From Deltaproteobacteria bacterium (GTDB lineage Bacteria; Myxococcota_A; Polyangia; DRWM01; JAAZOP01), in the NCBI GenBank assembly GCA_016930215.1, contig JAFGHH010000322.1, forward strand, positions 1 to 54,578: DNA of 54,578 bases, given 5' to 3'. Under the pieces are notes generated by a model that was not told the origin of the DNA, searched no databases, and saw nothing but the letters and a program-made list of their open reading frames with translations. Below, piece by piece: positions 7,943-25,835 of the stretch (the first letter of the stretch is position 1; the number at the start of each line of letters is the position of its first letter). The translations under genes and the position numbers were made by a program.

Positions 7943-7956
7943 AGCGCCCGGGCGCT
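7943..7956 (+). promoter_or_regulatory. perfect 14-nt palindrome AGCGCCCGGGCGCT 20 nt upstream of ATG 7976
   Basis: Read directly from the sequence. It lies in the 133-nt divergent intergenic region between 6664..7842 and 7976..9808. Confidence 0.25.
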
Positions 7957-7975
7957 TCCCCGTGCCGGACGCGCG

Positions 7976-9808: not shown

Positions 9809-10581
9809 GCATGGCTGCGACGAAGGACGGTCCGCATCGCCGGATCCCACGGTTACAGGTGGTCGTCGCCGGCACGGGCCGCGACGGGACGATGTCGCTG
9901 GCGCGCCTGATCGGCGACCTGGCGGCGGCGAACGGGCGCCGCTGGGTGTCGGAGCACGAGCTATACGCCGACCACGTCTGCAACCTGCTGAGCCGCTACC
10001 ACGAGACCGGCCTGGAGCTGCACCGCCGGGCGTTGCGCGACCTGCTGGCGCAGCTTCCGGCCCACGCCGTCGCCGGGACCACCTACCAGTTCGCCCTCGA
10101 TCTGCTCCTCGAACTCCACGGCCCCCGCCTGAAGCTGGTCCACCTCCGGCGGCGGGACCGCGCCGAGTGCATCCGTTCGTTGGCGCAGATCATCCACTGG
10201 CGCCCGGCGATGGCGATCCACATGACGAAGGAGGCGTGCCGCACGGACCTGCCGGAGTACACGCTGCGCCTGGCGGCGTTTCATTTCGGCGAGACGACCC
10301 ACGCCGCCTGGGAGCGCATGTCGCTCGATCAACGGCTCGGCTGGCACTTCGACAAGACCCACCGGCTGATCGAACGGGCCGCGCCGCGCTTCGGTGGCTA
10401 CCTGCAGCTCGACACGGAGGACCTCGACCGGCCCGCCACGGTGCGCCGGCTCGCCCGGTTCCTCGACCCTTCCTGGAAGCGGGTCTGTCCGGCGGTGCAC
10501 GTCAACTCGCGCGACGAGTGGCGCGAGCGCGGGGAGTTCAACGAGGCGGTCCGCCGCAAGATGCTCGCCCCGAGGAGTTGA
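9805..10581 (+). CDS. sulfotransferase-like P-loop protein (tentative)
   Basis: ATG 9805 is in an ATGA overlap with the upstream stop. I chose it inside the long listed ORF 6484..10581, whose upstream part is antisense to real genes. VVVAGTGRDGTMSLARL and LVHLRRRDRAECIRSL resemble sulfotransferase PAPS-binding motifs. Confidence 0.5.
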   Translation: MSMAATKDGPHRRIPRLQVVVAGTGRDGTMSLARLIGDLAAANGRRWVSEHELYADHVCNLLSRYHETGLELHRRALRDLLAQLPAHAVAGTTYQFALDLLLELHGPRLKLVHLRRRDRAECIRSLAQIIHWRPAMAIHMTKEACRTDLPEYTLRLAAFHFGETTHAAWERMSLDQRLGWHFDKTHRLIERAAPRFGGYLQLDTEDLDRPATVRRLARFLDPSWKRVCPAVHVNSRDEWRERGEFNEAVRRKMLAPRS

Positions 10582-10664
10582 GCGGCGCTCGAGCCGCCCG
10601 TCCGTCGCCTGTCGTCGCCTGTCGCCGCCTTGACACCCCGGAGGCGATCCCGCAGATTGGCCGC

Positions 10665-13571
10665 GTGCCCGGGAAGGCGCCCAAGGGCGGGGCGAAACGC
10701 CTGCTGCTCGTGGAGTTCGCGGCCACCGACCGCTTCCATCGCGCGCTGCTGTTCCCGTTCGTTCTCGGCTACGCGCGGTCCGCGGGCCGGCCCGCGCGCT
10801 GGCTCCGGTTCGGCGTTCCGGCGGCCGCTCCGGCGGGCGTCGAGGGCGGGGGGGTGCCGCTGCCGCGCGAGGACGAGGCGCGGCTGCGGGCGGCGGCCCG
10901 CGCGTTTCGTCCCGACCTCGTGCTGTTCAACATGACGCCGTCGCCCGGCGTGCGGCGCGCGGCCGCCGCGGCCGGTCGCACGGAGGAGGCCGTCCTGACC
11001 GACGGCGGGACCGGCGCGGCCGACACCGGGGACGTTCCGCAGCTCGACCTCGCCCGCACGTCGCTCGACGCGGTCCTCGGCCGGCGCGACGCCGCCGTGC
11101 AGGGCACGGGGCTGTTCCAGAACGTCGAGCCGCACTACGGGCTCGAGGCGGCGAACGAGGCGGCGGAGACGATGGACCCGCTGCCGTTCGTCTTCCTGGG
11201 CGAGGAGTGCACGTACAACCGGCCGTTCCGCGCGAGCGCCTTCCTGGCGGGGCTGACGTTCGAGGGGTGCTTCCGCAAGGGCGGGTGCTCCTTCTGCGGC
11301 CGGCCGGAGGCGGGCCGGTGGACGACGCCCCCGCCGGAGCTGCTGCGGCGCCAGCTCGCCGCGATCGACCGGACGCTGCCGGGGACGGAGGGCCGCGGGC
11401 TCCGGATCCGCCTGCTGGGCGAGGCGGCCCTGCGCCATGTCGGGGCCGTGGCGCGCGAGGCGCTGCGCTTCGGCCGGCGCCCGCTGGGCCTGCTGCTCGA
11501 CTCGCGGGTGGACCACTTCCTGGCCGCCGCCGAGCCGCTGCGGCGGGCGCTGCGCGCGCTCGACGGGTCCGGCGTGCGGCTCGAGCTGAGCCTTCTCGGG
11601 GCCGAGAGCTTCGGCACCGCGGCGCTCGACCGGCTGAACAAGGGGCTGCGGCCGGAGCAGACGCTGCGCGCGGTCCGGCTGCTGTTCGACCTGGAGCGCG
11701 AGTTTCCCGCCGGGTTCGGCTTCCGCGAGCACGGCGGGCTGAGCATGATCACGATGACGCCGTGGACGACGCCGGCCGAACTGGCGCTCGACCTGGCCGT
11801 CGTCGGGGCGCTCGGGCTCGAGGGGATCGTCGGCAAGCTGTTCACCGGTCGCCTGCGTCTCTTCCGCGGCCTGCCGCTGGTCGAGGCGGCCCGGCGCGAC
11901 GGGCTGCTCGTCCGCCGCTACGCCGACCCGCTGCTCGATACCGCGCGCCGCAACCTCTACGAGACGGAGATTCCGTGGCGCTTCGCGCGGCCGGAGATGG
12001 AGAGCCTCTGCCGCATCCTGGTCCGCCTCGACGCGGACGTCGCCGCGGCGTCCGACCCGCTCTCGCGCCGCGTGGCGAAGAAGAAGGGAACGCTCGGCCG
12101 CGGCGTGACCGCGCGCAGCGTCGCCGCGGCGCTCGCGATGACGGACGCCGCGATGCTCGCCGCGGCCTCGGGGAAGAGGCTCGCCCCCGCGGCGCTCCTG
12201 CGCGCGGCCGAGCATGGGACCGGAGCGGCGCGGACGTCCCGGGCGGCGAAGGCGTCCGCCCCGCCGCGGCACGAGGCGTGGGTGCGGCACGCGGAATGGC
12301 GCGGCGGCGCCGACGACCGCGGTCGGCTGCCGCTGCCGGTGCTGCTGGCGCACAAGCCGGCGATCAAGGTCGAGCCGCTCACCGCGACCGAGTGCGACCG
12401 TTTCCGGCGCGACCCGGAGCTGCCGAACGTACGGGCTCGCCGTCGAGGCAGCCGTGCGGGCGGCGAGGCGTGGGAGGTCTTCGTCGGGCGCCGATCGCGG
12501 GACGTCGCCGCCGCCGTGGAGCTGGCCGAGCGGATCGAGCGTGCGCGGCCCGGGCCCGAGCTGCGGGACGCCGTGACCCGGATGGGCATCGCGCTCGGTT
12601 ACCCGAAGTGCTGTGCGCGGGGTTTTTCCCAGGAACGGCCGCCGCTGGTGGACAACGTGTTCTGGCTCCACGTGGCGCGCCGCGTCGCCGTCCCCGGCCG
12701 CGTGCCGCCGGAAATGAACCCGCTCGCCCCGTGGCTCGAGTACGTCCCGTGCTCGGCGGCCTGCCGGGCCTCCGTCGCCCGGGCCCGCAGCATGATCCGC
12801 GCCTGGGGCGCCGAAGGCCGCCGGCAGCTCGAGCGGTGCCGCCATCCCGTGCTGTTGTTCCGCGAGGTGCAGGGCCAGGCGGTCGAGCTGGTGCCCCGCG
12901 ACGAGCCCGGCGAGCGGTTCCGCTACCGCGCCGGCGTCGTCGGCGGCTCCGGGCCGCTCGTCGAGGCGGTCTGCCGCGGCGACGAGCTGGTGCTGGAGGA
13001 CGAGCGGACGCTGGTGCTGCGGCGCGGCCGGCCGCTGATCGGCCTGTCGGCCCGGGCGTTCCTGTGGTGGCACGAACGGGCGCTGCAGGCGGAATTCTGG
13101 CGGGGAATGGTCGATGTGCTACGGGCGCGCGGTCCGGAACGTCGGCTGCCGGCGACGCCCGAGCCACGTGCGGAGACGCCGTTCACGCGGGACACCGCCG
13201 GGCTGCTCGGGAAGCTGCAGCGACGCCGGCCGCGCTTCGCCGGCTTCGCCCTGGACTCGTGGGGCACGACGGGCCCGGAGTGCGTCCGTGTGGTCCTCGT
13301 CGAGCGCGGCGACCGCGTGGAGCTCGATCTGTTCCCGCGCCGGCCCGGCGCGCCGGCCTTCCTGGAAGCGGGCGCGTTCCGGCTGACCTACCCGACCACG
13401 CATCCGCTCGATTCGCCCGCGCGGCTCGCCGCCGCGCGGGCCTTCGCCGCGGCCCTGGCCGGCGCGAAACTCGCCGACCATGACGACGACCACGTTGGGA
13501 GGCCTCGGATGCTGCCCGACGACGACCACGACCACGACGACGACCACGTTGGGGAAAGGGGGCGGCGGTGA
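10665..13571 (+). CDS. large multidomain protein: B12-binding-like + variant (Cx5Cx2C) radical-SAM-like + GYPxCC/PCS domain + His/Asp-rich tail
   Basis: GTG 10665 was chosen inside listed ORF 9720..13571, giving about 968 aa. Motifs are KRLLLVEFAATDRF..., EGCFRKGGCSFCGRPE, and a C-terminal ALGYPKCCARGF ... YVPCSAACRAS pair reminiscent of DUF483-type domains. The tail is HDDDHVGRPRMLPDDDHDHDDDHVGERGRR. The exact start is uncertain. Confidence 0.65.
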   Translation: MPGKAPKGGAKRLLLVEFAATDRFHRALLFPFVLGYARSAGRPARWLRFGVPAAAPAGVEGGGVPLPREDEARLRAAARAFRPDLVLFNMTPSPGVRRAAAAAGRTEEAVLTDGGTGAADTGDVPQLDLARTSLDAVLGRRDAAVQGTGLFQNVEPHYGLEAANEAAETMDPLPFVFLGEECTYNRPFRASAFLAGLTFEGCFRKGGCSFCGRPEAGRWTTPPPELLRRQLAAIDRTLPGTEGRGLRIRLLGEAALRHVGAVAREALRFGRRPLGLLLDSRVDHFLAAAEPLRRALRALDGSGVRLELSLLGAESFGTAALDRLNKGLRPEQTLRAVRLLFDLEREFPAGFGFREHGGLSMITMTPWTTPAELALDLAVVGALGLEGIVGKLFTGRLRLFRGLPLVEAARRDGLLVRRYADPLLDTARRNLYETEIPWRFARPEMESLCRILVRLDADVAAASDPLSRRVAKKKGTLGRGVTARSVAAALAMTDAAMLAAASGKRLAPAALLRAAEHGTGAARTSRAAKASAPPRHEAWVRHAEWRGGADDRGRLPLPVLLAHKPAIKVEPLTATECDRFRRDPELPNVRARRRGSRAGGEAWEVFVGRRSRDVAAAVELAERIERARPGPELRDAVTRMGIALGYPKCCARGFSQERPPLVDNVFWLHVARRVAVPGRVPPEMNPLAPWLEYVPCSAACRASVARARSMIRAWGAEGRRQLERCRHPVLLFREVQGQAVELVPRDEPGERFRYRAGVVGGSGPLVEAVCRGDELVLEDERTLVLRRGRPLIGLSARAFLWWHERALQAEFWRGMVDVLRARGPERRLPATPEPRAETPFTRDTAGLLGKLQRRRPRFAGFALDSWGTTGPECVRVVLVERGDRVELDLFPRRPGAPAFLEAGAFRLTYPTTHPLDSPARLAAARAFAAALAGAKLADHDDDHVGRPRMLPDDDHDHDDDHVGERGRR
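13488..13499 (+). repeat. GACCACGTTGGG motif, copy 1 (codes DHVG)
   Basis: Read directly from the sequence. It lies in the tail-coding region of 10665..13571. Confidence 0.9.
13542..13554 (+). repeat. GACCACGTTGGGG motif, copy 2 (codes DHVG)
   Basis: Read directly from the sequence. It uses the same Val codon (GTT), which looks uncommon here among the Val codons I translated (mostly GTG/GTC), as copy 1. Confidence 0.9.
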
Positions 13572-14920
13572 CCTTGCGCAGGCCCGCGCTCGACGTGGTG
13601 GCGGACGGCGGCGGGTGGGTTGCGCGGCTTGTGGAGGCGCTGCGGCAGGGCGGCGCGCCGCTCCGGTCCGCCTCGCTCCACGACGGCACGCTGCGCCTCG
13701 CGCTCGAACTGGAAGGCGGCCGGGCGTTCGTCGTCACGGCGCGGCCCTGGCGCGAGGGGCTGCAGGGATGGCGGCGCACCGAGCGGCTCCTCGTGGGTTA
13801 CGACGGAGCGGGGGACCCGGGACCGGACGGCGGCCGGTGGCTGGAGCGGATCCACGGCCTGCTCTCGCGTGGCGAAGGCTCGTTCCCGGAAGGGCTGGCG
13901 GGGTTCGCGGCGCTCGGGGCGCGGGGAGGGCGGCCCGAGGAGTCGCTGGCCGCGATGTTCCCGTTCGTCACCGTCGAGCGCTCCTCGCCGACGGCGGGGC
14001 GCGGCCGGCGTCCGCGTCCCGGGGAAGGGGTCGAGGTGCTGGTGCGGGCGACGTCGCGCTGCAACCAGGCCTGCCCGTTCTGCTCGGGGCCCAAGCACGC
14101 CGAGCCGAGCGGCGAGGTGCTCCGGGCCTGCTTCCGGGCCGTGGGAGAGCTGCTGCCCGGCGCGCTGGTGTCGCTGACCGGGGGCGAGCCGACGCTGCGG
14201 CGGGGCTTTCCCGGCGAGGTGCGCGCGGCGCTGGAGGCGCTGCCGCGCGGGGAGGTGCAGGTCCAGACGAATGCCGTCCGCTTCGCGACGGCGCTGGATC
14301 CGACCGACCTCCCGCGCGACCCGCGCCTCAAGTTCTTCGTCTCGCTGCACGCGCTGGACGAGGCGGCCTACGACCGGTGCACCGGCAGCCGCGGGCAGCT
14401 CGGCCAGGCGGTCGCCGGAACCCGACGACTGCTGGCGGCGGGGCACGCGGTGACGCTCAACGCGGTCGTATGCCGCGAGAACGTCGGGCACGTCGAGGCG
14501 TACGTGCGGCGGATGCCGCGGGCGTTCCCGGGCCTGCGGCGGCCCGTGTTGCACTTCTCGACGCTGATCTGTCCGGAGTGGAACCCGCGGGCCGCCCGGA
14601 GCCTGGTCCGCTACCGGGAGGTCGTCGAGGTCCTTCGTCGGGCGGCCCGCGTTGCGCGGGAGCTCGGATGGGAGATGCTGCCGCTGCGCTCCTCGACGCA
14701 CGCGACGATGCCGGCCTGCGTGTTGCGTCCTTCCGAGCGGCCGCGGCGGGCCGAGTACCGGGTCGGCGTGCGCGAGACCGGCTACGAGGACCTGTCCCGG
14801 CCGTTCGTGAAGGCGGCCCGCTGCCGCGGCTGTCGCGAGACGTCGCGCTGCCTCGGAGTCCCGCGCCCCTACGCCCTGGCCTTCGGCCTCGACGAGCTGC
14901 GGCCGATCCGGGGCGACTGA
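13568..14920 (+). CDS. radical SAM protein (Cx2Cx5C-tail paralog family)
   Basis: 450-aa listed ORF. GTG 13568 is in a GTGA overlap with the upstream stop. Motifs are VLVRATSRCNQACPFC, LTGGEPTL and a C-terminal CRGCRETSRC...GLDELRP. Confidence 0.8.
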   Translation: MTLRRPALDVVADGGGWVARLVEALRQGGAPLRSASLHDGTLRLALELEGGRAFVVTARPWREGLQGWRRTERLLVGYDGAGDPGPDGGRWLERIHGLLSRGEGSFPEGLAGFAALGARGGRPEESLAAMFPFVTVERSSPTAGRGRRPRPGEGVEVLVRATSRCNQACPFCSGPKHAEPSGEVLRACFRAVGELLPGALVSLTGGEPTLRRGFPGEVRAALEALPRGEVQVQTNAVRFATALDPTDLPRDPRLKFFVSLHALDEAAYDRCTGSRGQLGQAVAGTRRLLAAGHAVTLNAVVCRENVGHVEAYVRRMPRAFPGLRRPVLHFSTLICPEWNPRAARSLVRYREVVEVLRRAARVARELGWEMLPLRSSTHATMPACVLRPSERPRRAEYRVGVRETGYEDLSRPFVKAARCRGCRETSRCLGVPRPYALAFGLDELRPIRGD

Positions 14921-14983: not shown

Positions 14984-15814
14984 ATGAAGAAGCCTACGCC
15001 GCTGCGGGTTGCGATCTACGGAAAGGGGGGCATCGGGAAATCGGTCGTTGCGACGGGGCTCTCGGCCGTGCTGGCGAAGAGCGGGCGCAGGGTCCTGCAC
15101 GTCGGCTGCGACCCGAAGCACGACTCGGCGGTGCGGCTGCTGCCGCCCGGGGTCAAGCTGCGGACGGTGATGGAGGTGCTGGGCGACGCGCCGGGCGGCG
15201 GGGGGCAGGAGCCGATCATCCACGAGGGGCGGCTGGGGATCCACTGCTGCGAGTCGGGCGGTCCGTCGCCGGGGCTCGGGTGCGCCGGGCGCGGCGTGGC
15301 CCGCATGCTGGAGTACATGGAGGAGACCGGGTTGATGGAGCCCGGGCGCTACGACGCGATCGTGTTCGACGTGCTGGGGGACGTGGTGTGCGGCGGCTTT
15401 GCCGCGCCGTTGCGCCTCGGGTTCGCCGACCGCGTGGTGATCGTCACCTCCGAGGAGCCGATGGCGCTGTACGCGGCGAACAACATCTCCCGCGCGGTGC
15501 ACGCGTACCAGGACAACGGCGTGGTGCTGGCCGGTCTGGTGACCAACCTGCGGGGCCCCGACGCGCGGCGGGACAAGCTGCGCGAGTTCGCCCGGCGGCT
15601 ATCGACCAGCATCCTGGCGACGCTCGCGCGCGATCCGAAGATCCTGGAGAGCGAGCGTCGCCGGTGCACCGTCGTGGAACACGCCCCGAGCGGTCCGAGC
15701 AGCCGGGCGTTGCGCACCCTGGCCGGGGCGCTCGAGAAGCTGGACAAGCGCCGCTGCGTCCTCCCGACGCCGCTGGAGGACGAAGAGTTCTACAGGTTCA
15801 TGGACTCGTGGTAG
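14984..15814 (+). CDS. nitrogenase iron protein-like ATPase (NifH/BchL/CfbC family)
   Basis: 276-aa listed ORF. It has the P-loop IYGKGGIGKS, switch I CDPKHDS, and both [4Fe-4S] cysteine regions: ESGGPSPGLGCAGRGV and FDVLGDVVCGGFAAP. Confidence 0.9.
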   Translation: MKKPTPLRVAIYGKGGIGKSVVATGLSAVLAKSGRRVLHVGCDPKHDSAVRLLPPGVKLRTVMEVLGDAPGGGGQEPIIHEGRLGIHCCESGGPSPGLGCAGRGVARMLEYMEETGLMEPGRYDAIVFDVLGDVVCGGFAAPLRLGFADRVVIVTSEEPMALYAANNISRAVHAYQDNGVVLAGLVTNLRGPDARRDKLREFARRLSTSILATLARDPKILESERRRCTVVEHAPSGPSSRALRTLAGALEKLDKRRCVLPTPLEDEEFYRFMDSW

Positions 15815-17853
15815 CCACCCGCAAGACACCGGCTTCCCCCTCCGCACGGCTCGGCGGCCGCTGCGTCGCCGCCGGCGCCCGCACGCGCCTGCTGGTCGAG
15901 GAGCTGCTCGGGATCTCGGAGACCCGCGGGCGCTACCACCTGCGCACCGTGGCCTGGCTCGACCGCGCCCTGGAGGCCGGCGTCGTGGTGGACGACCGGG
16001 AGGTCGTGATCCGCATCGAGCGACGGACGGCGGACGCCGAGGGGCTGGTGACGACCCCCGAGCTGGTCGTGTACTACCGCGGCAAGGACCTGCCGGTCGA
16101 GCTGCTCGAGGCGATCCGGGCCCACGCGCCGAAACGGCTGCAGGGGAGGACGCTCGAGTCGCTGGAGGCGGCGGTCGCCGCGGACCCGGAGCTGGGGGCC
16201 TCGACGCTGGCGATGCCGCCGAGCGTCGACGAGGGCGACCGTCCGGGCTCGTTGCTGGATACCTGGGGCGGGGAGGACGCGTACGCCGACTTCTTCGCCG
16301 GCGGCGAGCTGGCGCGCGAGCAGCTCGACTCGCTCGACCCGGGCGTGCTGTTCACCTTCGTCCAGCACAGCGACTGCGAGTGCCTGCACGTGAACCCGCA
16401 CGGCATCGCGCCGATCGTCTGGCTGGTCAACCACCCGTGGGACAACCGCGTGCGGTACGGCGCCGCGGCGGGCGTGCGGCAGGACCTGGTCGCCGCGGCG
16501 GCCGAGGGGATGATGACGTCGGACCTCGACGAGGACGACGTGATCATGGGCAACGCGGGGAAGTTCCGCCGGCTGCTGGCGCAGGCCGAGCGGGTGTACC
16601 GGCGCGCCGGCAAGACGCTGTTCATCAGCAACACGTGCACGCCGGTGGTGAACGGCGAGGACGTCGAGTCGGAGGTGAACCGCTTCCGGGCGCGGAGCGG
16701 CTGTCCGCTGCTCTACCTCACCGTCACCCCGCGCTCGATGGTCAACGTGTTCGAGGACGTGCTCGTGACCCGGCGGCTCGCGGCGGAGCGGAAGGCGAAG
16801 GCCCCGCGGCCGCGCAGCGTGAACCTGATCGGCTTCCGCGAGGACCCCGCGTTGGACGAGTTGCGTGCGCTGCTGGCCTGCCTGGACGTGGAGGTCCGCG
16901 GCGTGCTGCTGCCCGAGCTGACGCTCGAGCGCGTCGACCGCCTGCCCGAGGCGGCCTGCAACGTGTTCCTGCCGAACCAGCTCTGGCAGCACCTGTACGA
17001 CCAGCTGGTCTCCGGCAGCCGCATCCCGCACCTGGACCCGCCCGCGCCGTACGGCTTCGCGGGGACGCTGGGGTGGCTCGAGGCGGTCGGCGGCCGGTTC
17101 GGCCTGTCGGCCAGGCGACGCCGGGCGCTCGAGGCCGCCGCGGCCGGCGTCCAGGCCCGGTTCGCGGAGCTGCAGACCGAGGTCGAAGGCCGGCGGCTCG
17201 GCTTCGTCGTGCGCTGCGACCAGACCTACTACCTCACGCGCCCGGCCGCCACGGCCGGCGTGCCGCTGGTGGCGATGCTCGAGGAGCTGGGCTTCAGGCT
17301 CGACGTCTTGCTCCAGGCGCGGGATCGCGAGACGGCGCGGCGGGCTGCCGAGGAGATCCAGGCGGTCTTCTCGCGGCCCGAGCGCCACCGCTTGAAGGCG
17401 TTCGATTCCCCGGAGGGGATGGCCCGACGGCTCGCGGAGAGCGAGGCGGAGGCGTTCTTCAGCTCGCACTTCTTCGACTGGCGCATCACCGGCGCGGGGA
17501 AGAACCTGTTCTCGCTGCAGCACTTCGAGGCGGGGCTGCGGGGCGCCGTGCGGACCGCGGAGCGGCTGCTGGGCATCTGCCGGACCCCGTTCTACCGACG
17601 CTTCCGCGGCCAGCTGCAGCGCACGCCCGAAGGGCTGCGCCGCGCAACCGTTTCCCCGGGGGGGACCGCCTGGTCGCACGTCGGGCCGGAGACCGGATGC
17701 GGCCGCCGGGGCGACCGCTGCGTCCCCCCCGGACCCCCCGCGCATCGTCTCGGGCAAAGCCCTCGACGACGCGCCACTGGCTCGCCAACGTCGCGGGGAG
17801 GCGGTGAACGGCTACTGCGCCGCGAGCCGCCGGGGAAGAGGGGGACGCCGTGA
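15808..17853 (+). CDS. nitrogenase component-1-like subunit (NifD/NifE/BchN-like) with N- and C-terminal extensions
   Basis: GTG 15808 (7-nt overlap with the NifH-like stop) was chosen inside listed ORF 15280..17853. TSDLDEDDVIMGNAGKF and FISNTCTPVVNGEDVE resemble the xLxExDxVFGG and CPxGLIGDD regions of NifD/E-type subunits, from memory. There is an N-terminal extension of about 200 aa and an Arg/Gly/Pro-rich tail of about 80 aa. Confidence 0.7.
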   Translation: MVATRKTPASPSARLGGRCVAAGARTRLLVEELLGISETRGRYHLRTVAWLDRALEAGVVVDDREVVIRIERRTADAEGLVTTPELVVYYRGKDLPVELLEAIRAHAPKRLQGRTLESLEAAVAADPELGASTLAMPPSVDEGDRPGSLLDTWGGEDAYADFFAGGELAREQLDSLDPGVLFTFVQHSDCECLHVNPHGIAPIVWLVNHPWDNRVRYGAAAGVRQDLVAAAAEGMMTSDLDEDDVIMGNAGKFRRLLAQAERVYRRAGKTLFISNTCTPVVNGEDVESEVNRFRARSGCPLLYLTVTPRSMVNVFEDVLVTRRLAAERKAKAPRPRSVNLIGFREDPALDELRALLACLDVEVRGVLLPELTLERVDRLPEAACNVFLPNQLWQHLYDQLVSGSRIPHLDPPAPYGFAGTLGWLEAVGGRFGLSARRRRALEAAAAGVQARFAELQTEVEGRRLGFVVRCDQTYYLTRPAATAGVPLVAMLEELGFRLDVLLQARDRETARRAAEEIQAVFSRPERHRLKAFDSPEGMARRLAESEAEAFFSSHFFDWRITGAGKNLFSLQHFEAGLRGAVRTAERLLGICRTPFYRRFRGQLQRTPEGLRRATVSPGGTAWSHVGPETGCGRRGDRCVPPGPPAHRLGQSPRRRATGSPTSRGGGERLLRREPPGKRGTP

Positions 17854-19238
17854 CGGCCGGGAGCGAGCGGCAGCGCCGTTTGCTGGAGCGGCTGGTCGCG
17901 CGGCTGGAGGCCGACGCCGGGGAAGAGGACTTCTCCATGCGCGTCGCCTACCCCTACCTGCTCGGCGTGTACCTCGGGGTCAACGCCGTGCGGGACGCCT
18001 TCCTCGTCGTGGAGGGCCCCGACTGCAGCTACATGAAGACGCAGTACATCCAGGGCAACCACGACTGGCTGTCCACGCTGACCTCGGTCGCGGGTTACCA
18101 CCGGGTGGCGAACACCGCGCTCCACCCCTCGATGATGACTGCCTCGCGCGAGGAGCCGGTGCGCGCGCTGCTGCGCCGCGTGGCCTCGCGCCCGGCGACG
18201 GGCGGCACGCTGCTCACGACGATGCCGATGGCCGCGATCACCGGCGCGGACTACGACCGGCTGTGCCGCGAGGTCGCCCGCGAGACGCGGAAGGACGTGG
18301 CGCACGTCCCCGGCCGCTCGCTGTCCGGCGACTGGCTCGACGGCTACGACCGCACGCTGTACGCGTTGGCGCGGCAGCTCGATCTGTCCGGCGGCCGGCC
18401 CCGGCCGCGGAAGGTCGCGATCGTCGGCTACCTCCACGACCGCAATGAGGCCGACCACAGCGCCAACCTGCGCGTGCTCCGGGAGATGTGCGAGGCGGTC
18501 GGCCTCGAGCTGACCGGGGTCTGGTTGTCGGGCGGGAGCTGGGCGGGTTTGCGCGGTGTCGGCGACGCCGCGACGATCCTGTCGCTGCCCTACGGCCGCG
18601 CGGCGGCGCGGGAGGTGGCGCGTCGGACGGGCGCCGAGGTCGTCGAGCTGCCGCTGCCGTTCGGCCTGCGGGCCTGCGAGGAGTGGATGCGGGTGCTCGG
18701 CGAGCGTTTCGGCGCCGTCGACCGGGCCCGGGCCTACGTGGATCGCATGCTGGCCGACATCGGGCCGCGGCTGGAGTGGCTGATCCCGTTCCTGTTCCAG
18801 AACCGCGAGGTGGGATATGTCGGCGACCCGCACCTCGTGCCCGGCTTCCGCGACATCGTCGAGCTGCTCGGGGCGCGTCTGCGGTTCGCCGTGCTGACCA
18901 ACCGCCCGGCGCACGCCGGCCTCGCGCGGCCGGCGCTCGAGGGGGTCGCCGGGCTGCCGTGGCCGAAGCTGAAGGCCTTCGTCCACTTCCTGTGCCGGCA
19001 GCTGCTGGACGGGGAGCTGCACCTCCTGGTCGCGAACAACTACGGCATGAGCGTCCCGCTGCCGGACGCCGCGGTGGTCGAGTTCGGCTTCCCGTCGGTC
19101 TACACCCACGCGCTGTACGACCGGCCCTTTTTCGGGTATCCGGGATTCCTGGCGTTCGTCGATACGCTGGCCAACGCGTTGCGCCAGAACGAGCTTGCCC
19201 GCGCGCGGGCGGCGACGCTGGAGGCCGGGGAGTCCTGA
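17850..19238 (+). CDS. nitrogenase component-1-like subunit (NifK/NifN/BchB-like)
   Basis: 462-aa listed ORF. GTG 17850 is in a GTGA overlap. FLVVEGPDCSYMKTQYIQ carries the single conserved Cys region. LLTTMPMAAITGADYD stands where NifK has a TTC...IGDD motif. Rossmann-like segments are KVAIVGYL and EVGYVGDPH. Confidence 0.65.
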   Translation: MTAGSERQRRLLERLVARLEADAGEEDFSMRVAYPYLLGVYLGVNAVRDAFLVVEGPDCSYMKTQYIQGNHDWLSTLTSVAGYHRVANTALHPSMMTASREEPVRALLRRVASRPATGGTLLTTMPMAAITGADYDRLCREVARETRKDVAHVPGRSLSGDWLDGYDRTLYALARQLDLSGGRPRPRKVAIVGYLHDRNEADHSANLRVLREMCEAVGLELTGVWLSGGSWAGLRGVGDAATILSLPYGRAAAREVARRTGAEVVELPLPFGLRACEEWMRVLGERFGAVDRARAYVDRMLADIGPRLEWLIPFLFQNREVGYVGDPHLVPGFRDIVELLGARLRFAVLTNRPAHAGLARPALEGVAGLPWPKLKAFVHFLCRQLLDGELHLLVANNYGMSVPLPDAAVVEFGFPSVYTHALYDRPFFGYPGFLAFVDTLANALRQNELARARAATLEAGES

Positions 19239-20599
19239 TGGCCGGCGGCTCGACGCGCCTGCTGGACGACCTGCGCCGGGCCCTGGAGGTCGCGGCCGGA
19301 AGCTCCGGATGGTCCGTCGGCAGGCCGGTCCTCGCCGACCGCCTCCGCGTGCCGGTCTCCCGGCCGGCCGGTGCCCGCCCGGCGCTCGAGCTCGTGGTCG
19401 AGCAGCGGAGTCCGGCCGCGGCGACCGGCGGCTACGCCGAGGTGGGCGGCTTCCGGTTGTTCTACGCGGCCCCGCGGAACGCGCCGCTCCCGCCGTCCGA
19501 CTCCGTCCCCGTCGCGACGCTGATGGACGCGCTGGTCCGGTGGCTGCGCACTTCCGAGAACGCTCTTGCCGCGCTGTGGACCGTCCGACGGAAGCGCGGG
19601 CGGGGGGGCGGCGGCGCCGCGCCACGCGGCCGGTCGGACCCCCGGACGTCGCGCGTCCTGGAGCCGGGATACGGGCTCGAGCGCGAGCAGATCCTCCGTG
19701 TCGAGTTCCGCTGCAACCAGCGCTGTCCGTTCTGCTTCGTCCGGATCCGGCCCCATCGGCCGGAGTGGGAGACGATCCGGAGGGCCCTCGACCGGGCCAC
19801 GGGCGACCGGCCCGGGGCGAACATCGTCCTCTCCGGGGGCGAGCCGACGTTGCACCCGGAGCTGCTGGAGCTGGTGGCGCGGATCCGCGCGCGCCGGCCG
19901 CGGCGCCTGGTGCTGCAGACCAACGCGGTCCGGCTGGCCGACGCCGGCTTCGCGGACCGGCTGCACGCCGCGGGCGTCCTCATCCACTTCGTCTCGCTGC
20001 ACTCGCACCGCGAGGAGACCTACGACCGGATCACGCGGACGTCGGGGCAGTTCCCGAAGGCGATCCGGGGCATTCGGAACCTGCTCGCCTACGCCGACGC
20101 GGCCGTCACGCTGAACATCCTGGTGAACCGGCTGAACGTCCGCTCGCTGTCCGGGTACGTCCGGTTCGTGGGCCGGTTGCGCGGGGCGGACGGCCGGCCG
20201 CCCGGCCTGTTCTTCACGGTGATGAACGACGTGGGCCTGGCCCGGGCTCCCGAGCTGGCGGTCCCGCTGGAGACGGTTGCGCCTGCGCTGGCTCGCGCCG
20301 TCGCGCTCTGCGCGGAACTGGGCATCCGAGTGGACCCGTTCACCGGCGAGTGCGCGCCGCCGCTCTGCGTGCTGCGGGACCCGGCGCCCTACGCGCGGAA
20401 GTCCGAGGACGGGTTCCGCGGGGCGCTCTACGTCGAGCCCGGCGCGGAGTTCGCGCCGCACCGGCGGGTGAAGCGGGTCGAGTGCCGGACGTGCCGGTAC
20501 GACGCGGTGTGCGTGGGGGTCAGCGGCGCCTACGCGCGACGGTTCGGACTGGAGGCGCTGAAGCCGTTCCGCGGCCCCCGGCTGTCGCTCCACGATTGA
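19238..20599 (+). CDS. radical SAM protein (Cx2Cx5C-tail family), paralog of 13568..14920
   Basis: ATG 19238 shares one base with the upstream TGA and was chosen inside listed ORF 18488..20599. Motifs are LRVEFRCNQRCPFC, LSGGEPTLHPEL and a C-terminal CRTCRYDAVC...GLEALKP. Confidence 0.8.
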   Translation: MAGGSTRLLDDLRRALEVAAGSSGWSVGRPVLADRLRVPVSRPAGARPALELVVEQRSPAAATGGYAEVGGFRLFYAAPRNAPLPPSDSVPVATLMDALVRWLRTSENALAALWTVRRKRGRGGGGAAPRGRSDPRTSRVLEPGYGLEREQILRVEFRCNQRCPFCFVRIRPHRPEWETIRRALDRATGDRPGANIVLSGGEPTLHPELLELVARIRARRPRRLVLQTNAVRLADAGFADRLHAAGVLIHFVSLHSHREETYDRITRTSGQFPKAIRGIRNLLAYADAAVTLNILVNRLNVRSLSGYVRFVGRLRGADGRPPGLFFTVMNDVGLARAPELAVPLETVAPALARAVALCAELGIRVDPFTGECAPPLCVLRDPAPYARKSEDGFRGALYVEPGAEFAPHRRVKRVECRTCRYDAVCVGVSGAYARRFGLEALKPFRGPRLSLHD

Positions 20600-20631
20600 C
20601 ACCCCCCGCCGCGCGGGTTCACCGTTCCGGC

Positions 20632-22320
20632 GTGGACCACGACGACGCACCGGCGGCCGGGTCCGAGTCGCCGTTGGCCCGTGCCCGGTCGCTCGAGAAC
20701 TCCAGCCGCCCCGCCGAGGCCGAGGCGGCTGTGCGCCCGCTCGCGGCCCGCGCCGCCCGCGTGCTGCCCCGGCTGCTCGCGCGGCTCGTCCGGGAGGCGT
20801 CGGGCGAGGGCGAGGCGCCGCGCTCGCGGTACTGGACGCTGCTCGAGTTCGACCCTTTCCGGCGCGCGTTCCTGGCGCGACTGGCGCGACGGCCGGCCGA
20901 CCTGGGGCGCGTCGCCTCGGCGATGCGCGCCGCGCTCGACGGTGATCCCGCCCGCAACGCCGTGCGGACGCTGCTTGGGGACGTCCTCTTGGTGCAGGGA
21001 AAACAGGCGGCGGCCGAGCGGCTCGCGAAGGACGCGTTCCGGCGCGGCCGGACGGGCGGGGAGGACTCCCGCTTCCGGCTGCTGCTGCGGCTCGTGGATC
21101 GCGGCCGGTACGGCCGGGCGCTGGAGCGGTCCGTGCTGGCGCGGCTGTGGGAGGCGTCGCCGTCGGACCGGCTCCTCGTCGAGTGGTCGCAGTTCTACTC
21201 GGCCCTGATGTGCACCGGTCGCTACCGGGCCGCGTTCCGCGTGGCCGAGGCGGTGCTGGACAAGCTTGGGCGGTTCGAGTCGTTGTTGCCGCTGCAGTGG
21301 CCGTGGTGGCGGAGGGTCGGCCGGGCGGTGAACGAGGAGCGCTTCCTCGCGCGCGAGCTGCAGCGGCTTCGGGCCGCCTCGCGCTCGGGCCGCTTCCCCC
21401 ACTGGTTCGCCTACTATCGCGCGGTGCTGTCGGGCCAGCTCGGTCGCCTGCGCGAGGCGCTGGCGGAGTTTCCGCGCCTGGCGCGCCTCGCACCGAACCG
21501 CTACTCGTGGATGCGCCAGGCGTTCGTCCCCGTGCACCTCGAGCGGCTCGACTTCCGGGGCGTGATCGCCGCCTGCCGCGCCGTCCTGCGGCACGCGCCG
21601 GACCAGTGGTGGGTGCGGTGCCGGATGGCGGAGGCGTACTTGGCGCTGGGCGACCACGCGGAGGCGTTGCGCCAGCTCCGGCGGGCCCGGGCCGGAGCCG
21701 ACCCGCGGGTGGTGCGGGAGGTCCTGACCTGGCACGGCGAGGTGCTGCTGTGGCTGGGGCGGTACCGGGCGGCCCTGCGTCTCCTCGACCGTGCGATCCG
21801 GCTCGGCGCCACGACCTTCGTCTACGGCTGGCGCGGCGCCGCTCGGCTGAAGCTCGGGGACGCCGAAGGCGCGCTGGAGGATCTCGACCGTGCGATCGAG
21901 TTGGACGCGAAGGACATCGAGGCGTACGTGTGGCGGGGCGAGGCGCACCGGCTCGCGGGTCGGTACGCCGCGGCGCTCCGCGACCTGGATCGCTTCCTCG
22001 AGTCCCAGCCGGATTGCTGCTGGGGCCTGTTCAACCGTGGCCTGGTGCGGGCCGAGCTGGGCGACGACGCCGGCCTGGCCGCGGATCTCGCCGCCGTTCC
22101 GCGGGGGGTGGATCTCGCCGTCCGGCGCAGGCTGGACCTCCCCGACGACCGGGCGTTGACGGCGGCGGAGCAGCGTGCCCTGGCGACCGCCGCGCTGGAG
22201 TTGGGCCGGGGCATCCGGCGGTGGGAACCGTACCTGTATCCTATCTGGCTGGGTCGCGACGGACGCCCCGTGGAGCGCGACGCGAGACGACGGGCGCGCC
22301 GCGGCGCAGGCGGTCCTTGA
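20632..22320 (+). CDS. TPR-repeat protein
   Basis: GTG 20632 was chosen inside listed ORF 19195..22320; the start is uncertain. The C-terminal half has repeated TPR-like helices: AEAYLALGDHAEALRQLRRA, GRYRAALRLLDRAIRL, GDAEGALEDLDRAIELD and GRYAAALRDLDRFLES. Confidence 0.65.
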   Translation: MDHDDAPAAGSESPLARARSLENSSRPAEAEAAVRPLAARAARVLPRLLARLVREASGEGEAPRSRYWTLLEFDPFRRAFLARLARRPADLGRVASAMRAALDGDPARNAVRTLLGDVLLVQGKQAAAERLAKDAFRRGRTGGEDSRFRLLLRLVDRGRYGRALERSVLARLWEASPSDRLLVEWSQFYSALMCTGRYRAAFRVAEAVLDKLGRFESLLPLQWPWWRRVGRAVNEERFLARELQRLRAASRSGRFPHWFAYYRAVLSGQLGRLREALAEFPRLARLAPNRYSWMRQAFVPVHLERLDFRGVIAACRAVLRHAPDQWWVRCRMAEAYLALGDHAEALRQLRRARAGADPRVVREVLTWHGEVLLWLGRYRAALRLLDRAIRLGATTFVYGWRGAARLKLGDAEGALEDLDRAIELDAKDIEAYVWRGEAHRLAGRYAAALRDLDRFLESQPDCCWGLFNRGLVRAELGDDAGLAADLAAVPRGVDLAVRRRLDLPDDRALTAAEQRALATAALELGRGIRRWEPYLYPIWLGRDGRPVERDARRRARRGAGGP

Positions 22321-23050
22321 GCGCCTCGGTCCGGACGTGGTCGTGCTCCAGCCGGCGGAGCAGGGCCGCCTCGGCCGGGCTGCGGCGGACGACGGCCCGG
22401 ACCGCGCCGCCGGCCATCACGAGGCGCCGGTCGGCGCGCAGCGCGATCAGCGGGTCGTGCGTGGCCACCAGCGCGATCACCCGGTGGGCCAGCAGGAAGT
22501 CGAGCGCCCGCAGGCGGTCGATCCCGGCGTTCTCCAGCTCGTCGATCAGCACCACCGGGCAGGCGCTGACCAGCACGACGTCGGCGACCATCAGCGCGCG
22601 CGCCTGTCCGCCGCTCAGGAGCGCCAGCGGCACGTCGGCGTCGAACGGTTCGCCGACCAGGCCGTTGGCCGCCGCGAGCGCTTCGGCCGCCAACGCCGCC
22701 GGCTGGGCCCGGCCGCGGTGCTCGGCGTGGAGTCGCAGGAACTCGCCGGCCGTGGCGTCGAGGTAGAAGCCCATCGCCTGGCTCAGGCGGGCCACGAGGG
22801 TTTCGGGCGTCCGTCCCCTGGAGTCCGCCCCCTCGAGGCGCACGCGCCGGCCGGAGGGCGAGTCGCCGCGCGCCAGGCGTTCGACGTCGGCCAGCAGCCG
22901 GGTCTTGCCCGAGCCGGTGGGGCCGACGACGGCCAGCACCTCGCCGGCCTTCACCTGGAGGAGGCGCACGGGCTCCGGCTTGCCGTCCTTGCCGGTCCCA
23001 CCCTCGACGAGCAGCCGCAGCGAGCGGGGTCGAGCCTTCCCGGTCTTCAT
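22241..23050 (-). CDS. ABC-type ATPase (no adjacent permease)
   Basis: ATG 23050 (MKTGKARP...) is in an ATGA overlap with the upstream stop. It has Walker A GPTGSGKT, signature LSGGQ and Walker B VVLIDE. Confidence 0.75.
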   Translation of the reverse strand: MKTGKARPRSLRLLVEGGTGKDGKPEPVRLLQVKAGEVLAVVGPTGSGKTRLLADVERLARGDSPSGRRVRLEGADSRGRTPETLVARLSQAMGFYLDATAGEFLRLHAEHRGRAQPAALAAEALAAANGLVGEPFDADVPLALLSGGQARALMVADVVLVSACPVVLIDELENAGIDRLRALDFLLAHRVIALVATHDPLIALRADRRLVMAGGAVRAVVRRSPAEAALLRRLEHDHVRTEALKDRLRRGAPVVSRRAPRGVRRDPAR

Positions 23051-23685
23051 CGGATCCCTCCCCGGCACAGTGCGCAGCTTCCCCGCGGCAGGGGATGACG
23101 CAAGTGCTCCTCCGGCAGCAGCTCGATCGGCGGCAGCTTCCGCAGCCACGCCGCCAGCGCCTCGACCCCCTCACCGGTCAGGCCGTTCACCTCCAGGATC
23201 GGCAGCCCGGGCCGCAGGCGTCGGAGGACCGACCGCAGCACCTCGCGCTCGGCCTGGCTGACCAGCTCGCCCCGGGTCAGGACGACCGCATCGGCGCCCT
23301 CGATCAGCGGTCGCATCTTGGCCGGCGCGCGGAGGTTGCAGGCGGTCGACAGGACGCACAGGCTCGGGACGCGGCGCAGGAACGGGCTGCAGCGGTCGCA
23401 GAGGCCGGCGGTCTCGACGACGGCGAGGTCGGCGCCGCGCGCGGCGGCCCCGACGGCGAAGTCGCCGATCGCGACGGCGGTGTGGTGGTCCGGGCACAGC
23501 TCGCGGCTCAGCGTGACCTGCAGCTCGACGCCCGCGGCGCGGTACGCTTCCCGGTCGTGCGCGACGAGGCAGTCGCACTTGAGCGCCGCGACGCGGAGGC
23601 CGCGGCGCGCGAGGCGGCCGAGGGCCCGGGCGAGCACGGCGGTCTTGCCGGAGGCGGGCGGGCCGGCGGCGATCACCAGGCGCAC
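23047..23685 (-). CDS. G3E-type P-loop GTPase (HypB/UreG/CobW-like metallochaperone candidate)
   Basis: GTG 23685 is preceded by GGAGGAGG and was chosen inside listed ORF 23047..25599. Motifs are VIAAGPPASGKT, VETAGLCDRCSP, VVLTRGE and a C-terminal CALC. Confidence 0.65.
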   Translation of the reverse strand: MRLVIAAGPPASGKTAVLARALGRLARRGLRVAALKCDCLVAHDREAYRAAGVELQVTLSRELCPDHHTAVAIGDFAVGAAARGADLAVVETAGLCDRCSPFLRRVPSLCVLSTACNLRAPAKMRPLIEGADAVVLTRGELVSQAEREVLRSVLRRLRPGLPILEVNGLTGEGVEALAAWLRKLPPIELLPEEHLRHPLPRGSCALCRGGIR

Positions 23686-25028: not shown

Positions 25029-25055
25029 CGCCCCGTGTCTCCCCGGTCGCCCGGC

Positions 25056-25835
25056 TCAGAGGTCCAGGATTCCGACGCGCTGCCGTCCGAGGCAGTAGGA
25101 ACAGTAGAACTGGGGCAGACCGGCGCGCAGCCCGTCCTTCCCCGGGCGCCCGAGCAGCGCCGCCGTCCGTTTCCACAGCGCCTCGGCCCCTTCGCCGGTG
25201 AGGCCGTCCAGCGTGAGCGCGGCGGTCCGGCCCAGGTCGCGCGCCGCCGCGAGCAGCATCTCCCGCTCGGCGGGCGTGACCCGGTCCGGTCGGGTCAGCA
25301 CGCAGAGATCGCACGTCGTCAGCATCGGCCCGACCTTGGCGAGCGCCCCGCGGCCGGCGGACGCGTCGGCCGCAAACAGCGCCGCGCCGCGGACCGGGTA
25401 CGGGCTGCAGCGGCAGCAGAGCCCGGCGCTCTCCACGAGCAGCAGGTCCGCGTGCTCGCCCGCCGCCCAGTCCCGCATCTCCGGCAGGGCGAGGGCCAGC
25501 ACGTGGTCCGGGCAGGTGTCGCCGGCGGTCCAGCGCCGCCAGGGGACCGCGCGCGGCCCGGCGGTCGTCCAAACCGGGCGCGGTTCTGAAGGGAAGCACT
25601 CCAGCGCGGCGACGGCCGGCCGCCGAGACGCGGCCAGGGCCCGGCGGCCGAGCCAGCGGAGCACCGCCGACTTGCCGCTCGACGGGAACCCCGCCACCAC
25701 GACGCAGTCCACGGGCACGACGGCGGCGTCCGGACGCGAAGCCGGGCGACGCGTCGTCCCTCCGCTTCTCCCCGGTCCGCCGAGTTGTCTCGCTCCCACG
25801 TCCCGGACGCTACCATTCGTGGTGGATCGCGGCAA
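25056..25835 (-). CDS. G3E-type P-loop GTPase, paralog of 23047..23685
   Basis: Motifs are VVAGFPSSGKS, VESAGLCCRCSP, CVLTRPD and a C-terminal CSYC. The listed TTG start at 25835 is uncertain. In-frame GTGs at 25718 and 25712 would give an N-terminus like the paralog. Confidence 0.6.
   Translation of the reverse strand: MPRSTTNGSVRDVGARQLGGPGRSGGTTRRPASRPDAAVVPVDCVVVAGFPSSGKSAVLRWLGRRALAASRRPAVAALECFPSEPRPVWTTAGPRAVPWRRWTAGDTCPDHVLALALPEMRDWAAGEHADLLLVESAGLCCRCSPYPVRGAALFAADASAGRGALAKVGPMLTTCDLCVLTRPDRVTPAEREMLLAAARDLGRTAALTLDGLTGEGAEALWKRTAALLGRPGKDGLRAGLPQFYCSYCLGRQRVGILDL

Follow-up and report, generated by a model that had tools for sequence, protein, structure and literature searches.

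The window analyzed here, that is, the whole stretch of DNA, covers 54,578 nucleotides (positions 1 to 54,578 of contig JAFGHH010000322.1, GenBank assembly GCA_016930215.1) and comes from a high-GC Myxococcota metagenome-assembled genome (MAG), the source contig having a GC content of approximately 74%. It contains three adjoining genes, nflH, nflD and nflK, which are a real but previously described kind of nitrogenase look-alike, probably the Group VI nitrogenase-like (NFL) system NflHDK. On balance, we favor the reading that NflHDK is a Group VI two-component reductase, in which an interface [4Fe-4S] cluster would be held by Cys192 and Cys277 of NflD and Cys59 of NflK. As judged from the alignments described below, the enzyme is neither a P-cluster enzyme nor one carrying the iron-molybdenum cofactor (FeMo-co).

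Group VI is the one major branch of the nitrogenase superfamily without known substrate, product or cluster type, and it is called 'elusive' in a 2026 review (PMC13474568). This review and an earlier account of the Group VI paralogs (Méheust et al. 2020, bioRxiv 10.1101/765248) are cited throughout from excerpts, to which our statements about them refer. The absence of a P-cluster and of FeMo-co, and the probable presence of a simple [4Fe-4S] cluster, are already in the literature at the level of the group. To this, the present analysis adds an exact map of the three cysteine positions and the finding that an apparent fourth cysteine is lineage-specific.

NflHDK is a translationally coupled nitrogenase-like operon

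The three genes and the evidence for each are as follows.

14984-15814, + strand: NflH, NifH-like ATP-dependent reductase, 276 amino acids (aa) (Pfam Fer4_NifH, motif alignment)
15808-17853, + strand: NflD-like subunit, 681 aa (open reading frame, codon-position GC, PF00148, homologues, Foldseek)
17850-19238, + strand: NflK-like subunit, 462 aa (PF00148 over the full length, homologues)

All three genes lie on the same strand and form a translationally coupled operon: the GTG start of nflD at 15808 overlaps the nflH stop, and the nflD stop overlaps the nflK start (GTGA, 17850). Both large subunits exceed the gathering score of PF00148 (Oxidored_nitro; cut-off 28.6 bits), with 87.1 bits for NflD (aa 235-490) and 130.3 bits for NflK over its full length. 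The match in NflD begins only at residue 235 because core residues 150-235 are divergent. The adjoining NflH scores 252.9 bits on Fer4_NifH, against a cut-off of 25.

Searches against solved structures agree with this assignment. The HMMER search of NflD against PDB chains gave MarD, a component of methylthio-alkane reductase, as the best match (9d9u_A and 9fmg_A, profile E-value 4e-20), followed by NifE (2e-16), and the top Foldseek matches of the NflD model are NifE, MarD and NifD (E-values 4e-15 to 1e-13). By Pfam, PDB sequence searches and Foldseek, H, D and K are members of the nitrogenase superfamily. None of the three reaches a named equivalog in NCBIfam: NflD scores 34.2 bits on the nifE model (TIGR01283; cut-off 505), TIGR01279 and TIGR01278 (BchN, BchB) give 24-30 bits against cut-offs of 420-490, the NCBIfam BchN and BchB scores being approximately 26-30 bits against 324-490 overall, and NflH scores 258 bits on nifH (cut-off 394) and 253.6 bits on CfbC (cut-off 402).

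NflH is approximately 41% identical to NifH and BchL. Aligned with annotated NifH and BchL, it shows the P-loop GKGGIGKS, switch I CDPKHDS and switch II DVLGDVVCGGF, and its cluster ligands Cys100 and Cys136 correspond to NifH Cys97 and Cys132; these cysteines and the Walker and switch motifs are the features expected of a Group VI NflH. Homologous clusters number 59 for the D-like protein (approximately 600-630 aa) and 328 for the K-like protein. The sequence of NflK is found unchanged in GenBank under the title 'MAG: hypothetical protein JXB32_14305 [Deltaproteobacteria bacterium]'.

Cluster-ligand positions in NflD and NflK

The ligand positions were mapped by a joint MAFFT L-INS-i alignment of subsets of the D and K families with reference sequences, namely NifD, NifK, NifE and NifN from Pantoea plasmid pPAT9B03 and BchN and BchB from Sulfitobacter plasmid pSD118. 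The result was checked by profile-profile alignment with hhalign. The sites that matter for the argument are listed below.

16375-16383, + strand: Cys190-Glu191-Cys192 of NflD in QHSDCEC (MAFFT, hhalign, column counts)
16636-16638, + strand: Cys277 of NflD in SNTCTPVVNGED (NTC277TPVVNGEDV) (HMMER, MAFFT, hhalign, conservation)
16972-16974, + strand: Pro389 of NflD, in the column of NifD Cys275 and NifE Cys250 (joint alignment)
18021-18026, + strand: Asp58-Cys59 of NflK in VEGPDC (EGPDC59SY), the Cys codon at 18024-18026 (MAFFT, hhalign, conservation)
18225-18227, + strand: Pro126 of NflK in TTMPMAAITGADY, in the column of NifK Cys153 and D-Cys277 (MAFFT, hhalign, conservation)

At the second ligand column, which holds NifD Cys88, NifK Cys95, NifE Cys62, NifN Cys44, BchN Cys54 and BchB Asp36, NflD carries Cys192 and NflK carries Cys59. 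The third column (NifD Cys154, NifK Cys153, NifE Cys124, BchN Cys115) is occupied by Cys277 in NflD and by Pro126 in NflK. At the first column (NifD Cys62, NifK Cys70, NifE Cys37), MAFFT places a gap, with no cysteine in the D-like or the K-like proteins; BchN Cys29 falls outside this column in the joint alignment.

The hhalign comparison of the D family with a NifD/NifE/BchN profile (97% probability) pairs QHSDCEC without gaps with SHGPIGC, the HGPxGC motif of NifD. In this pairing, D-His187 meets NifD His83, Cys190 meets Ile86 and Cys192 meets Cys88. When the D profile is aligned with the K profile, Cys277 pairs with Pro126. The HMMER alignments to PDB chains begin at approximately residue 235 of NflD and residue 87 of NflK, which leaves Cys192 and Cys59 uncovered, and they equate Cys277 directly with NifE Cys124 in the alignments to NifE and MarD chains. 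In the AlphaFold2 (AF2) model of NflD, Cys192 sits at the start of a helix (residues 191-195) that follows a β-strand (182-186), and Cys277 comes directly after a strand (270-275).

Of the FeMo-co ligands, NifD Cys275 is replaced by Pro389, and the column of NifD His442 is a gap in all D-like proteins of the joint alignment. Three of the six P-cluster cysteine positions are filled (the equivalents of NifD Cys88 and Cys154 and of NifK Cys95), which falls within the published Group VI description of at most four of six P-cluster cysteines and no FeMo-co ligands. The preliminary description of this DNA had argued from its letters against a P-cluster or FeMo-co enzyme for the D/K pair. This conclusion is supported because the Cys62, Cys70 and Cys153 positions are free of cysteine and the FeMo-co columns hold a proline and a gap. 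Likewise, its remark that NflK has no cysteine where NifK carries Cys153 is borne out by Pro126, and NflK indeed has no cysteine approximately 25 residues after the first one, as it had noted, position 84 being a histidine.

A complex-cluster enzyme, of the methylthio-alkane reductase or true nitrogenase type, would combine a P-like cluster with a second one of the L- or M-like type. Among PDB chains NflD matches MarD best, and the many radical SAM (S-adenosylmethionine) genes nearby could in principle include a cluster-maturing enzyme. However, three of the six P-cluster positions lack cysteine, one of them being an invariant proline, and the columns of NifD Cys275 and His442, equivalent to MarD Cys270 and His429 in the excerpted review (PMC13474568), hold a proline and a gap. 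No radical SAM gene of the window reaches the NifB model, and NifB is absent from the matches listed; among the window genes scanned with NCBIfam, which cover the 54.6-kb contig only, the NifB, NifE and NifN models have no match above cut-off. The published view of Group VI, so far as excerpted, agrees (PMC13474568). We consider a complex-cluster enzyme very improbable.

Three further residues of NflD were considered as ligands and set aside. Asp161, a possible stand-in for the Cys62 ligand, lies in a low-confidence hhalign column, and in distant relatives this residue is replaced by Asn, Arg or Gln. Cys299 (SGCPLLY), a further cysteine that the preliminary description had left out, is variable among relatives, which disqualifies it as a universal extra ligand. 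Position 591 is a cysteine in 35 of 42 sequences; however, Cys591 closes the last core helix on its C-terminal side and is aligned to NifD Leu466, and we take it to be an improbable, though still conceivable, universal ligand.

Conservation separates three cysteines from a fourth

Conservation was counted in 46 D and 52 K relatives and also in the copies from related loci (41 of D, 39 of K), which reach down to approximately 30% identity. Exactly three cysteine columns are invariant in the D and K alignments, namely D192, D277 and K59, and Cys59 is the sole invariant cysteine of the K-like family. D-Glu191, the K-Gly56-Pro57-Asp58 stretch and K-Pro126 are invariant as well. The three-cysteine pattern is not a chance one, since it holds across relatives and loci to this level of divergence.

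Cys190 does not belong to this set. Cysteine is found at D190 in 14 of the 46 relatives, at D188 in 18 and at neither position in 14, and the two never occur together. The relatives with neither cysteine include members of the most distant lineages and keep all other residues of the site. The preliminary description had counted three cysteines in D and one in K (3+1), reading HSDCEC as two of the three NifD/E-type ligands and K-Cys59 as the first cysteine. Its cysteine motifs are all present in the reading frames of the two genes (HSDC190EC192, NTC277TPVVNGEDV, EGPDC59SY and TTMPMAAITGADY), and Cys192, Cys277 and K-Cys59 do occupy ligand positions; Cys190 does not, as it matches the non-ligand NifD Ile86, and the count of 3+1 is not supported. 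On the alignments, the conserved putative ligand set is 2+1, a CfbD-like pair in D with a NifN-type cysteine in K.

An all-cysteine 3+1 site in the style of NifEN or the dark-operative protochlorophyllide oxidoreductase (DPOR), with D-Cys190, D-Cys192, D-Cys277 and K-Cys59 holding the interface [4Fe-4S] cluster, has to be weighed at this point. In the protein of the window, four cysteines lie near canonical positions, and K-Cys59 shares its column exactly with NifN Cys44. In 32 of the 46 relatives Cys192 is preceded, at a distance of two or four residues, by another cysteine, as though an additional thiol near the site were often useful. However, Cys190 does not align with the position of NifD Cys62, NifE Cys37 or BchN Cys29, and the 14 relatives free of cysteine at both 188 and 190 retain the rest of the site. 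In addition, a CxC pair on one short turn is geometrically awkward for ligating two irons of one cubane, which counts against such an arrangement. We regard an all-cysteine site as unlikely.

The likeness to NifEN and DPOR that the preliminary description proposed thus stands in one respect and fails in another. The comparison is apt because the K-Cys59 column, which holds NifN Cys44 and BchB Asp36, provides the single second-subunit ligand of the [4Fe-4S] clusters of both systems. The first cysteine on the D side is absent.

We also notice that the NflK segment directly after Cys59, QGNHDWLSTLTSVSGxHRVANTALHP (aa 68-93, 18051-18128), is exceptionally conserved. Asn70, His71 and Asp72 never vary, and His84, which lies approximately 25 residues past Cys59, is almost invariant, as are Arg85 and His92. 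These residues may line a substrate pocket or relay protons.

Proposed cluster site and its alternatives

Three canonical cysteines, an intact NflH and the lack of M-cluster ligands together argue for one interface cluster of the [4Fe-4S] type with a non-canonical fourth ligand. In the mechanism we propose, NflH would act as a homodimeric ATPase with a [4Fe-4S] cluster bridged via Cys100 and Cys136, passing low-potential electrons to the NflD/NflK catalytic component. The latter, possibly a D2K2 assembly, would be free of P-cluster, FeMo-co and L-type cluster. Its most likely arrangement would be one [4Fe-4S]-type cluster per D/K interface on D-Cys192, D-Cys277 and K-Cys59.

The fourth iron ligand would be non-canonical. 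The nearby Cys190 could serve in this protein; across the family, an oxygen ligand seems more likely, either a carboxylate of D-Glu191, D-Asp189 or K-Asp58, all of which are invariant and adjoin the ligand cysteines, or water or substrate. The resulting site-differentiated cluster would be of the DPOR-like '3 Cys + carboxylate' type, and it would pass electrons on to an organic substrate that the radical SAM enzymes encoded nearby would make or modify.

Several points weigh against this picture. Three cysteines would equally fit a [2Fe-2S] cluster, a [3Fe-4S] cluster or a cluster with substrate at its fourth site. The predicted geometry of the site comes from profile alignments and the secondary structure of an AF2 monomer, in which residues 150-235 of the D core, bearing Cys192, are the least confident part (predicted local distance difference test score, pLDDT, 44-80). 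The hhalign alignment near the NifD Cys62 position is of low confidence as well. Expression and metal loading of the proteins are assumed in this picture. Finally, the idea of a tetrapyrrole substrate is weak, and the HxsB/C/D-like neighbors described below point to peptide-type radical SAM chemistry.

A different metal center, or none, is a further alternative, in favor of which speaks that only three conserved thiols are available. The cysteines might hold a mononuclear metal or an iron-sulfur cluster of another type ([2Fe-2S] or [3Fe-4S]), or they might have a structural or redox role, with NflDK serving as a scaffold or chaperone similar to NifEN and not as a reductase. Two CobW-like metallochaperone GTPases and an ABC-type ATPase nearby hint at the delivery of a metal or cofactor, and the scaffold protein NifEN is among the closest structural matches. 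Against this, the three cysteines stand exactly at the [4Fe-4S] or P-cluster ligand positions of every characterized family member, and NifE Cys250, the match of NifD Cys275, is replaced by proline. Moreover, D and K are coupled in translation to an intact, ATP-dependent NflH that has cluster ligands of its own, which argues for electron transfer to an acceptor cluster. We judge a different or missing center to be improbable, more so than the all-cysteine site.

A bolder extension of the two-component reductase reading is also conceivable. D-Cys192, D-Cys277 and K-Cys59 together with the invariant D-Glu191 and K-Asp58 might form a catalytic cluster of a kind new to the nitrogenase superfamily, a site-differentiated [4Fe-4S] cluster whose fourth iron would be held by a carboxylate or open to substrate. 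Taken with the N-terminal domain of the clade and the recurring HxsB/C/D-type radical SAM neighbors, such a cluster would point to an enzyme that reduces a peptide-derived or new cofactor or a natural product and not a tetrapyrrole. The open fourth iron may, by analogy, be likened to that of IspG, IspH or aconitase. We put this forward tentatively, as an idea with a small chance of being right. The three-cysteine set and its invariant neighboring carboxylates are concrete targets for mutagenesis and spectroscopy.

N-terminal domain and C-terminal tail of NflD

Upstream of the core, NflD carries a separate domain.

15844-16236, + strand: family-specific N-terminal domain of NflD, aa 13-143, approximately 130 aa (AF2, Foldseek, profile search)

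In the AF2 models, both of the full-length protein and of the domain alone, it is an antiparallel β-sheet packed with helices, with pLDDT of approximately 90 or above. A Foldseek search of the PDB gave no significant match, the best having an E-value of 0.38 with vague NTF2- or cystatin-like shapes. The preliminary description had reported an N-terminal extension of approximately 200 aa with an unknown fold; the absence of a known fold holds, and the length comes down to approximately 105-140 aa when reckoned from residue 192, the equivalent of NifD Cys88.

A search of 1.84 billion proteins with a profile of the domain yields only 67 representative clusters. Most of the matching proteins are approximately 590-850 aa long, which is the size of D-like proteins as judged by length alone, and short fragments make up most of the remainder. 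The N-terminal domain is missing from the most distant D relatives (L038-L042). It is duplicated in some proteins of approximately 750-790 aa, the size of longer D-like relatives, and it is internal or C-terminal in a few proteins of 850-1400 aa, which may be gene fusions or merged gene calls. Proteins with these unusual arrangements are P0181, P0187 and P0188 from the domain search and P0049, P0052, P0053 and P0055 from the D homologues.

At the other end of NflD, the tail is genuine open-reading-frame sequence, but its codon bias collapses, with the GC content at third codon positions (GC3) falling from approximately 0.97 to approximately 0.7 after approximately 17620. Residues 619-681 have pLDDT below 50 and are predicted to be disordered, and D homologues cover approximately 88-91% of the query. 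Comparison with relatives locates an insertion here.

17645-17824, + strand: 180-nucleotide (60-codon) in-frame Arg/Gly/Pro-rich insertion in the NflD linker (relative comparison, GC3, pLDDT)

The insertion is missing from the relatives compared (the C-termini of P0001, P0002 and P0004, and loci L003 and L004). The closest relatives end in ...EGLRRE(x)nRGTP, with the same stop and overlapping nflK start. The insertion is bounded by a 10-bp direct repeat, CTGCGCCGCG (17635-17644 and 17815-17824), and no other copy of it occurs in the window or in 39 related loci. The repeat is possibly a matter of chance because the 10-mer is found elsewhere in the GC-rich window too. In our view, the tail is a variable linker, predicted to be disordered, that carries a lineage-specific insertion. 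The preliminary description, which had offered disorder or read-through as explanations of the tail, was right about the disorder; a simple read-through does not account for it. The insertion could be recent, could be an ancestral feature that the relatives lost through a deletion mediated by the repeat, or could be an assembly artefact.

Genomic neighborhood

Ten genes above the Radical_SAM cut-off lie within approximately 32 kb. Two of them have a B12-binding domain above cut-off, a third has a weak match, and one has a SPASM domain. Upstream genes (2-13571) were called from codon-position GC, and families were assigned by Pfam and NCBIfam. The neighborhood is composed as follows.

2-970, - strand: B12-binding radical SAM gene (Pfam)
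2206-3750, + strand: B12-binding radical SAM gene (Pfam)
3859-4953, - strand: ferredoxin-domain protein (Pfam)
4950-6656, - strand: radical SAM gene (Pfam)
6664-7842, - strand: radical SAM/SPASM gene (Pfam)
8021-9808, + strand: radical SAM gene with a weak B12-binding match below the Pfam cut-off (Pfam)
10665-13571, + strand: 968-aa protein, directly upstream of the radical SAM-NflHDK block (only faint Radical_SAM and DUF483 matches)
13568-14920, + strand: radical SAM gene immediately upstream of NflH (Pfam; NCBIfam HxsC and MoaA far below cut-offs)
19238-20599, + strand: radical SAM gene immediately downstream of NflK (Pfam; NCBIfam HxsC4 and HxsC below cut-offs)
20596-22320, + strand: TPR protein (Pfam)
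22241-23068, - strand: ABC-type ATPase with no adjoining permease (Pfam)
23047-23685, - strand: CobW/HypB/UreG-like GTPase (Pfam)
23673-25028, - strand: radical SAM gene (Pfam)
25056-25718, - strand: CobW/HypB/UreG-like GTPase (Pfam)
27058-27900, - strand: TP_methylase-fold protein (Pfam 59 bits; best NCBIfam match RsmI, 47 bits against a cut-off of 502)
27825-30146, - strand: 773-aa double radical SAM protein with an HxsC/HxsC4-like end (Pfam, NCBIfam)
30143-31729, - strand: HxsB (NCBIfam, 482 bits against a cut-off of 370)
31946-32404, - strand: HxsD-like protein (NCBIfam, 45.4 bits against a cut-off of 50)

The context that characterizes Group VI, in which NifB is missing and a set of radical SAM genes, part of them with B12-binding fusions, lies alongside, is seen in the window. 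In most related loci a radical SAM gene adjoins NflH, usually immediately upstream. The 968-aa protein has no NCBIfam match; it is 85% identical to its counterpart in locus L003 and 32-38% identical to those in L017, L018 and L021. Downstream of NflK, the neighborhood is syntenic with L003.

The two CobW/HypB/UreG-like GTPases are approximately 38-40% identical to each other. Together with the ABC-type ATPase they flank a radical SAM gene (22241-25718), and all have conserved counterparts in L003, a close relative. A possible role for them is the delivery of a metal or cofactor.

The genes at 27825-32404 make up a module that resembles the His-Xaa-Ser (Hxs) radical SAM system, in which an HxsA repeat peptide goes with HxsB, HxsC and HxsD. 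The HxsC-like matches of the neighborhood are far below the NCBIfam cut-offs, and a six-frame scan found no open reading frame for HxsA or a His-Xaa-Ser repeat peptide. Hxs-like homologues occur within 10 kb of NflDK in the Myxococcota loci L006, L009, L012, L014, L018, L023 and L036. The literature, in the excerpts used, proposes a tetrapyrrole-type cofactor as the Group VI substrate. There is little support for this substrate in the window because its only such marker, the TP_methylase-fold protein, best matches RsmI, a 16S rRNA 2'-O-methyltransferase, with a score far below cut-off. The radical SAM suite, the HxsB/C/D module, the CobW-like GTPases and the RsmI-like protein suggest caution about the published guess.

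Outside the cluster, we observed a PAS-PAS-PAS histidine kinase/response regulator hybrid (33703-36024, - strand) and an extracytoplasmic function (ECF) sigma factor with a FecR-like anti-sigma protein (40753-42715, + strand). The kinase hybrid and the sigma/anti-sigma pair might regulate the cluster.

Comparison with known nitrogenase-like systems

Group VI nitrogenase paralogs have been found in Elusimicrobia, two Gracilibacteria and fourteen aquatic Myxococcales genomes (10.1101/765248). The review excerpts describe their NflD and NflK as uncharacterized proteins without Cys275 and His442, with at most four of the six P-cluster cysteines and probably with [4Fe-4S]-type clusters (PMC13474568). 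NflHDK of the window resembles them in the NifH-like Cys97/Cys132 pair and ATP motifs of NflH, and in its divergent D and K subunits, which lack the FeMo-co ligands and several P-cluster cysteines. It shares with them the absence of NifB, the radical SAM suite with B12-binding fusions and an origin among aquatic Myxococcales.

A syntenic locus links the two more closely. Supplementary Dataset 2 of the earlier account (10.1101/765248) names Deltaproteobacteria bacterium B64_G9 among the carriers of a Group VI nifH, and it also names a cultured carrier, Enhygromyxa salina SWB007. The B64_G9 locus (L007) has the same radical SAM-H-D-K order, with identities to the window of 47% for the radical SAM protein, 64% for H, 56% for D and 61% for K. 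By these sequence comparisons the locus appears to match the published Group VI systems, with support that is indirect. We notice that the first set of B64_G9 is directly followed by another D-H-K set (L007 9754-13737; 32%, 58% and 48% identity), and that L003, a 92%-identical relative, has an extra K-like gene (19383-20750, 42% identity) that the window does not have.

There are differences as well. The excerpted published statements are made at group level, such as the lack of some conserved cysteine motifs or the figure of at most four of six, whereas exactly three of six positions (D 88 and 154, K 95) are assigned here. This myxobacterial clade has the D N-terminal domain of approximately 130 aa and HxsB/C/D-like neighbors, neither of which is mentioned in the excerpts of the two Group VI accounts (10.1101/765248; PMC13474568).

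MarDK (Group IV-C; 9d9u, 9fmg) is the best sequence match of NflD among solved structures, over residues 237-466. It differs in having a P-cluster and an L-like cluster on Cys270 and His429, positions that are not conserved here.

NifEN is closer at the level of the site. It is the top Foldseek match (9ian, E-value 4e-15), the motif SNTC(V/T)P...GED is near-identical around Cys277 and NifE Cys124, and K-Cys59 corresponds to NifN Cys44, with neither NifN nor NflK having a Cys153 equivalent. Equivalents of NifE Cys62 and Cys124 and of NifN Cys44 are therefore present, whereas those of NifE Cys37 and Cys250 are absent, the latter column being a proline, and there are no neighboring nif genes. NflDK is thus not a NifEN protein.

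The DPOR components BchNB and ChlNB (Group V) are likewise heteromeric, and their single asymmetric interface [4Fe-4S] cluster is built from three cysteines and one non-cysteine ligand, as we propose for NflDK. DPOR uses three cysteines and an aspartate in the Cys95 column (PMC13474568, as excerpted), so that its second-subunit ligand stands in the same NifK Cys95 column as K-Cys59. In DPOR, however, BchN provides all three cysteines, including the Cys62 equivalent, and BchB provides the aspartate. In NflDK, the equivalent of the first BchN cysteine is absent and K has a cysteine in the column of Asp36, with two predicted ligand cysteines on D and one on K, which sets it apart from DPOR.

CfbD binds a [4Fe-4S] cluster via Cys39 and Cys94, which correspond to NifD Cys88 and Cys154 in the excerpted review (PMC13474568). 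Going by these published equivalences and not by an alignment of our own, NflD keeps exactly the two ligand cysteines of CfbD, and both are without an M-cluster site. The reductases are alike too, as NflH scores almost equally on the CfbC and NifH models (254 versus 258 bits). CfbD differs in that it forms a homodimer, whose 2+2 site is symmetric. In NflDK a distinct K partner would give a single cysteine, and the site is predicted to be asymmetric because the Cys153 column of K is an invariant proline. With this partner, and with a CfbC score below the model's cut-off, NflHDK falls outside CfbCD.

The NflDK site can thus be placed between the symmetric cluster of CfbD and the asymmetric clusters of DPOR and NifEN. 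Such an intermediate site is relevant to the evolution of heteromeric nitrogenase-type components from homomeric ancestors.

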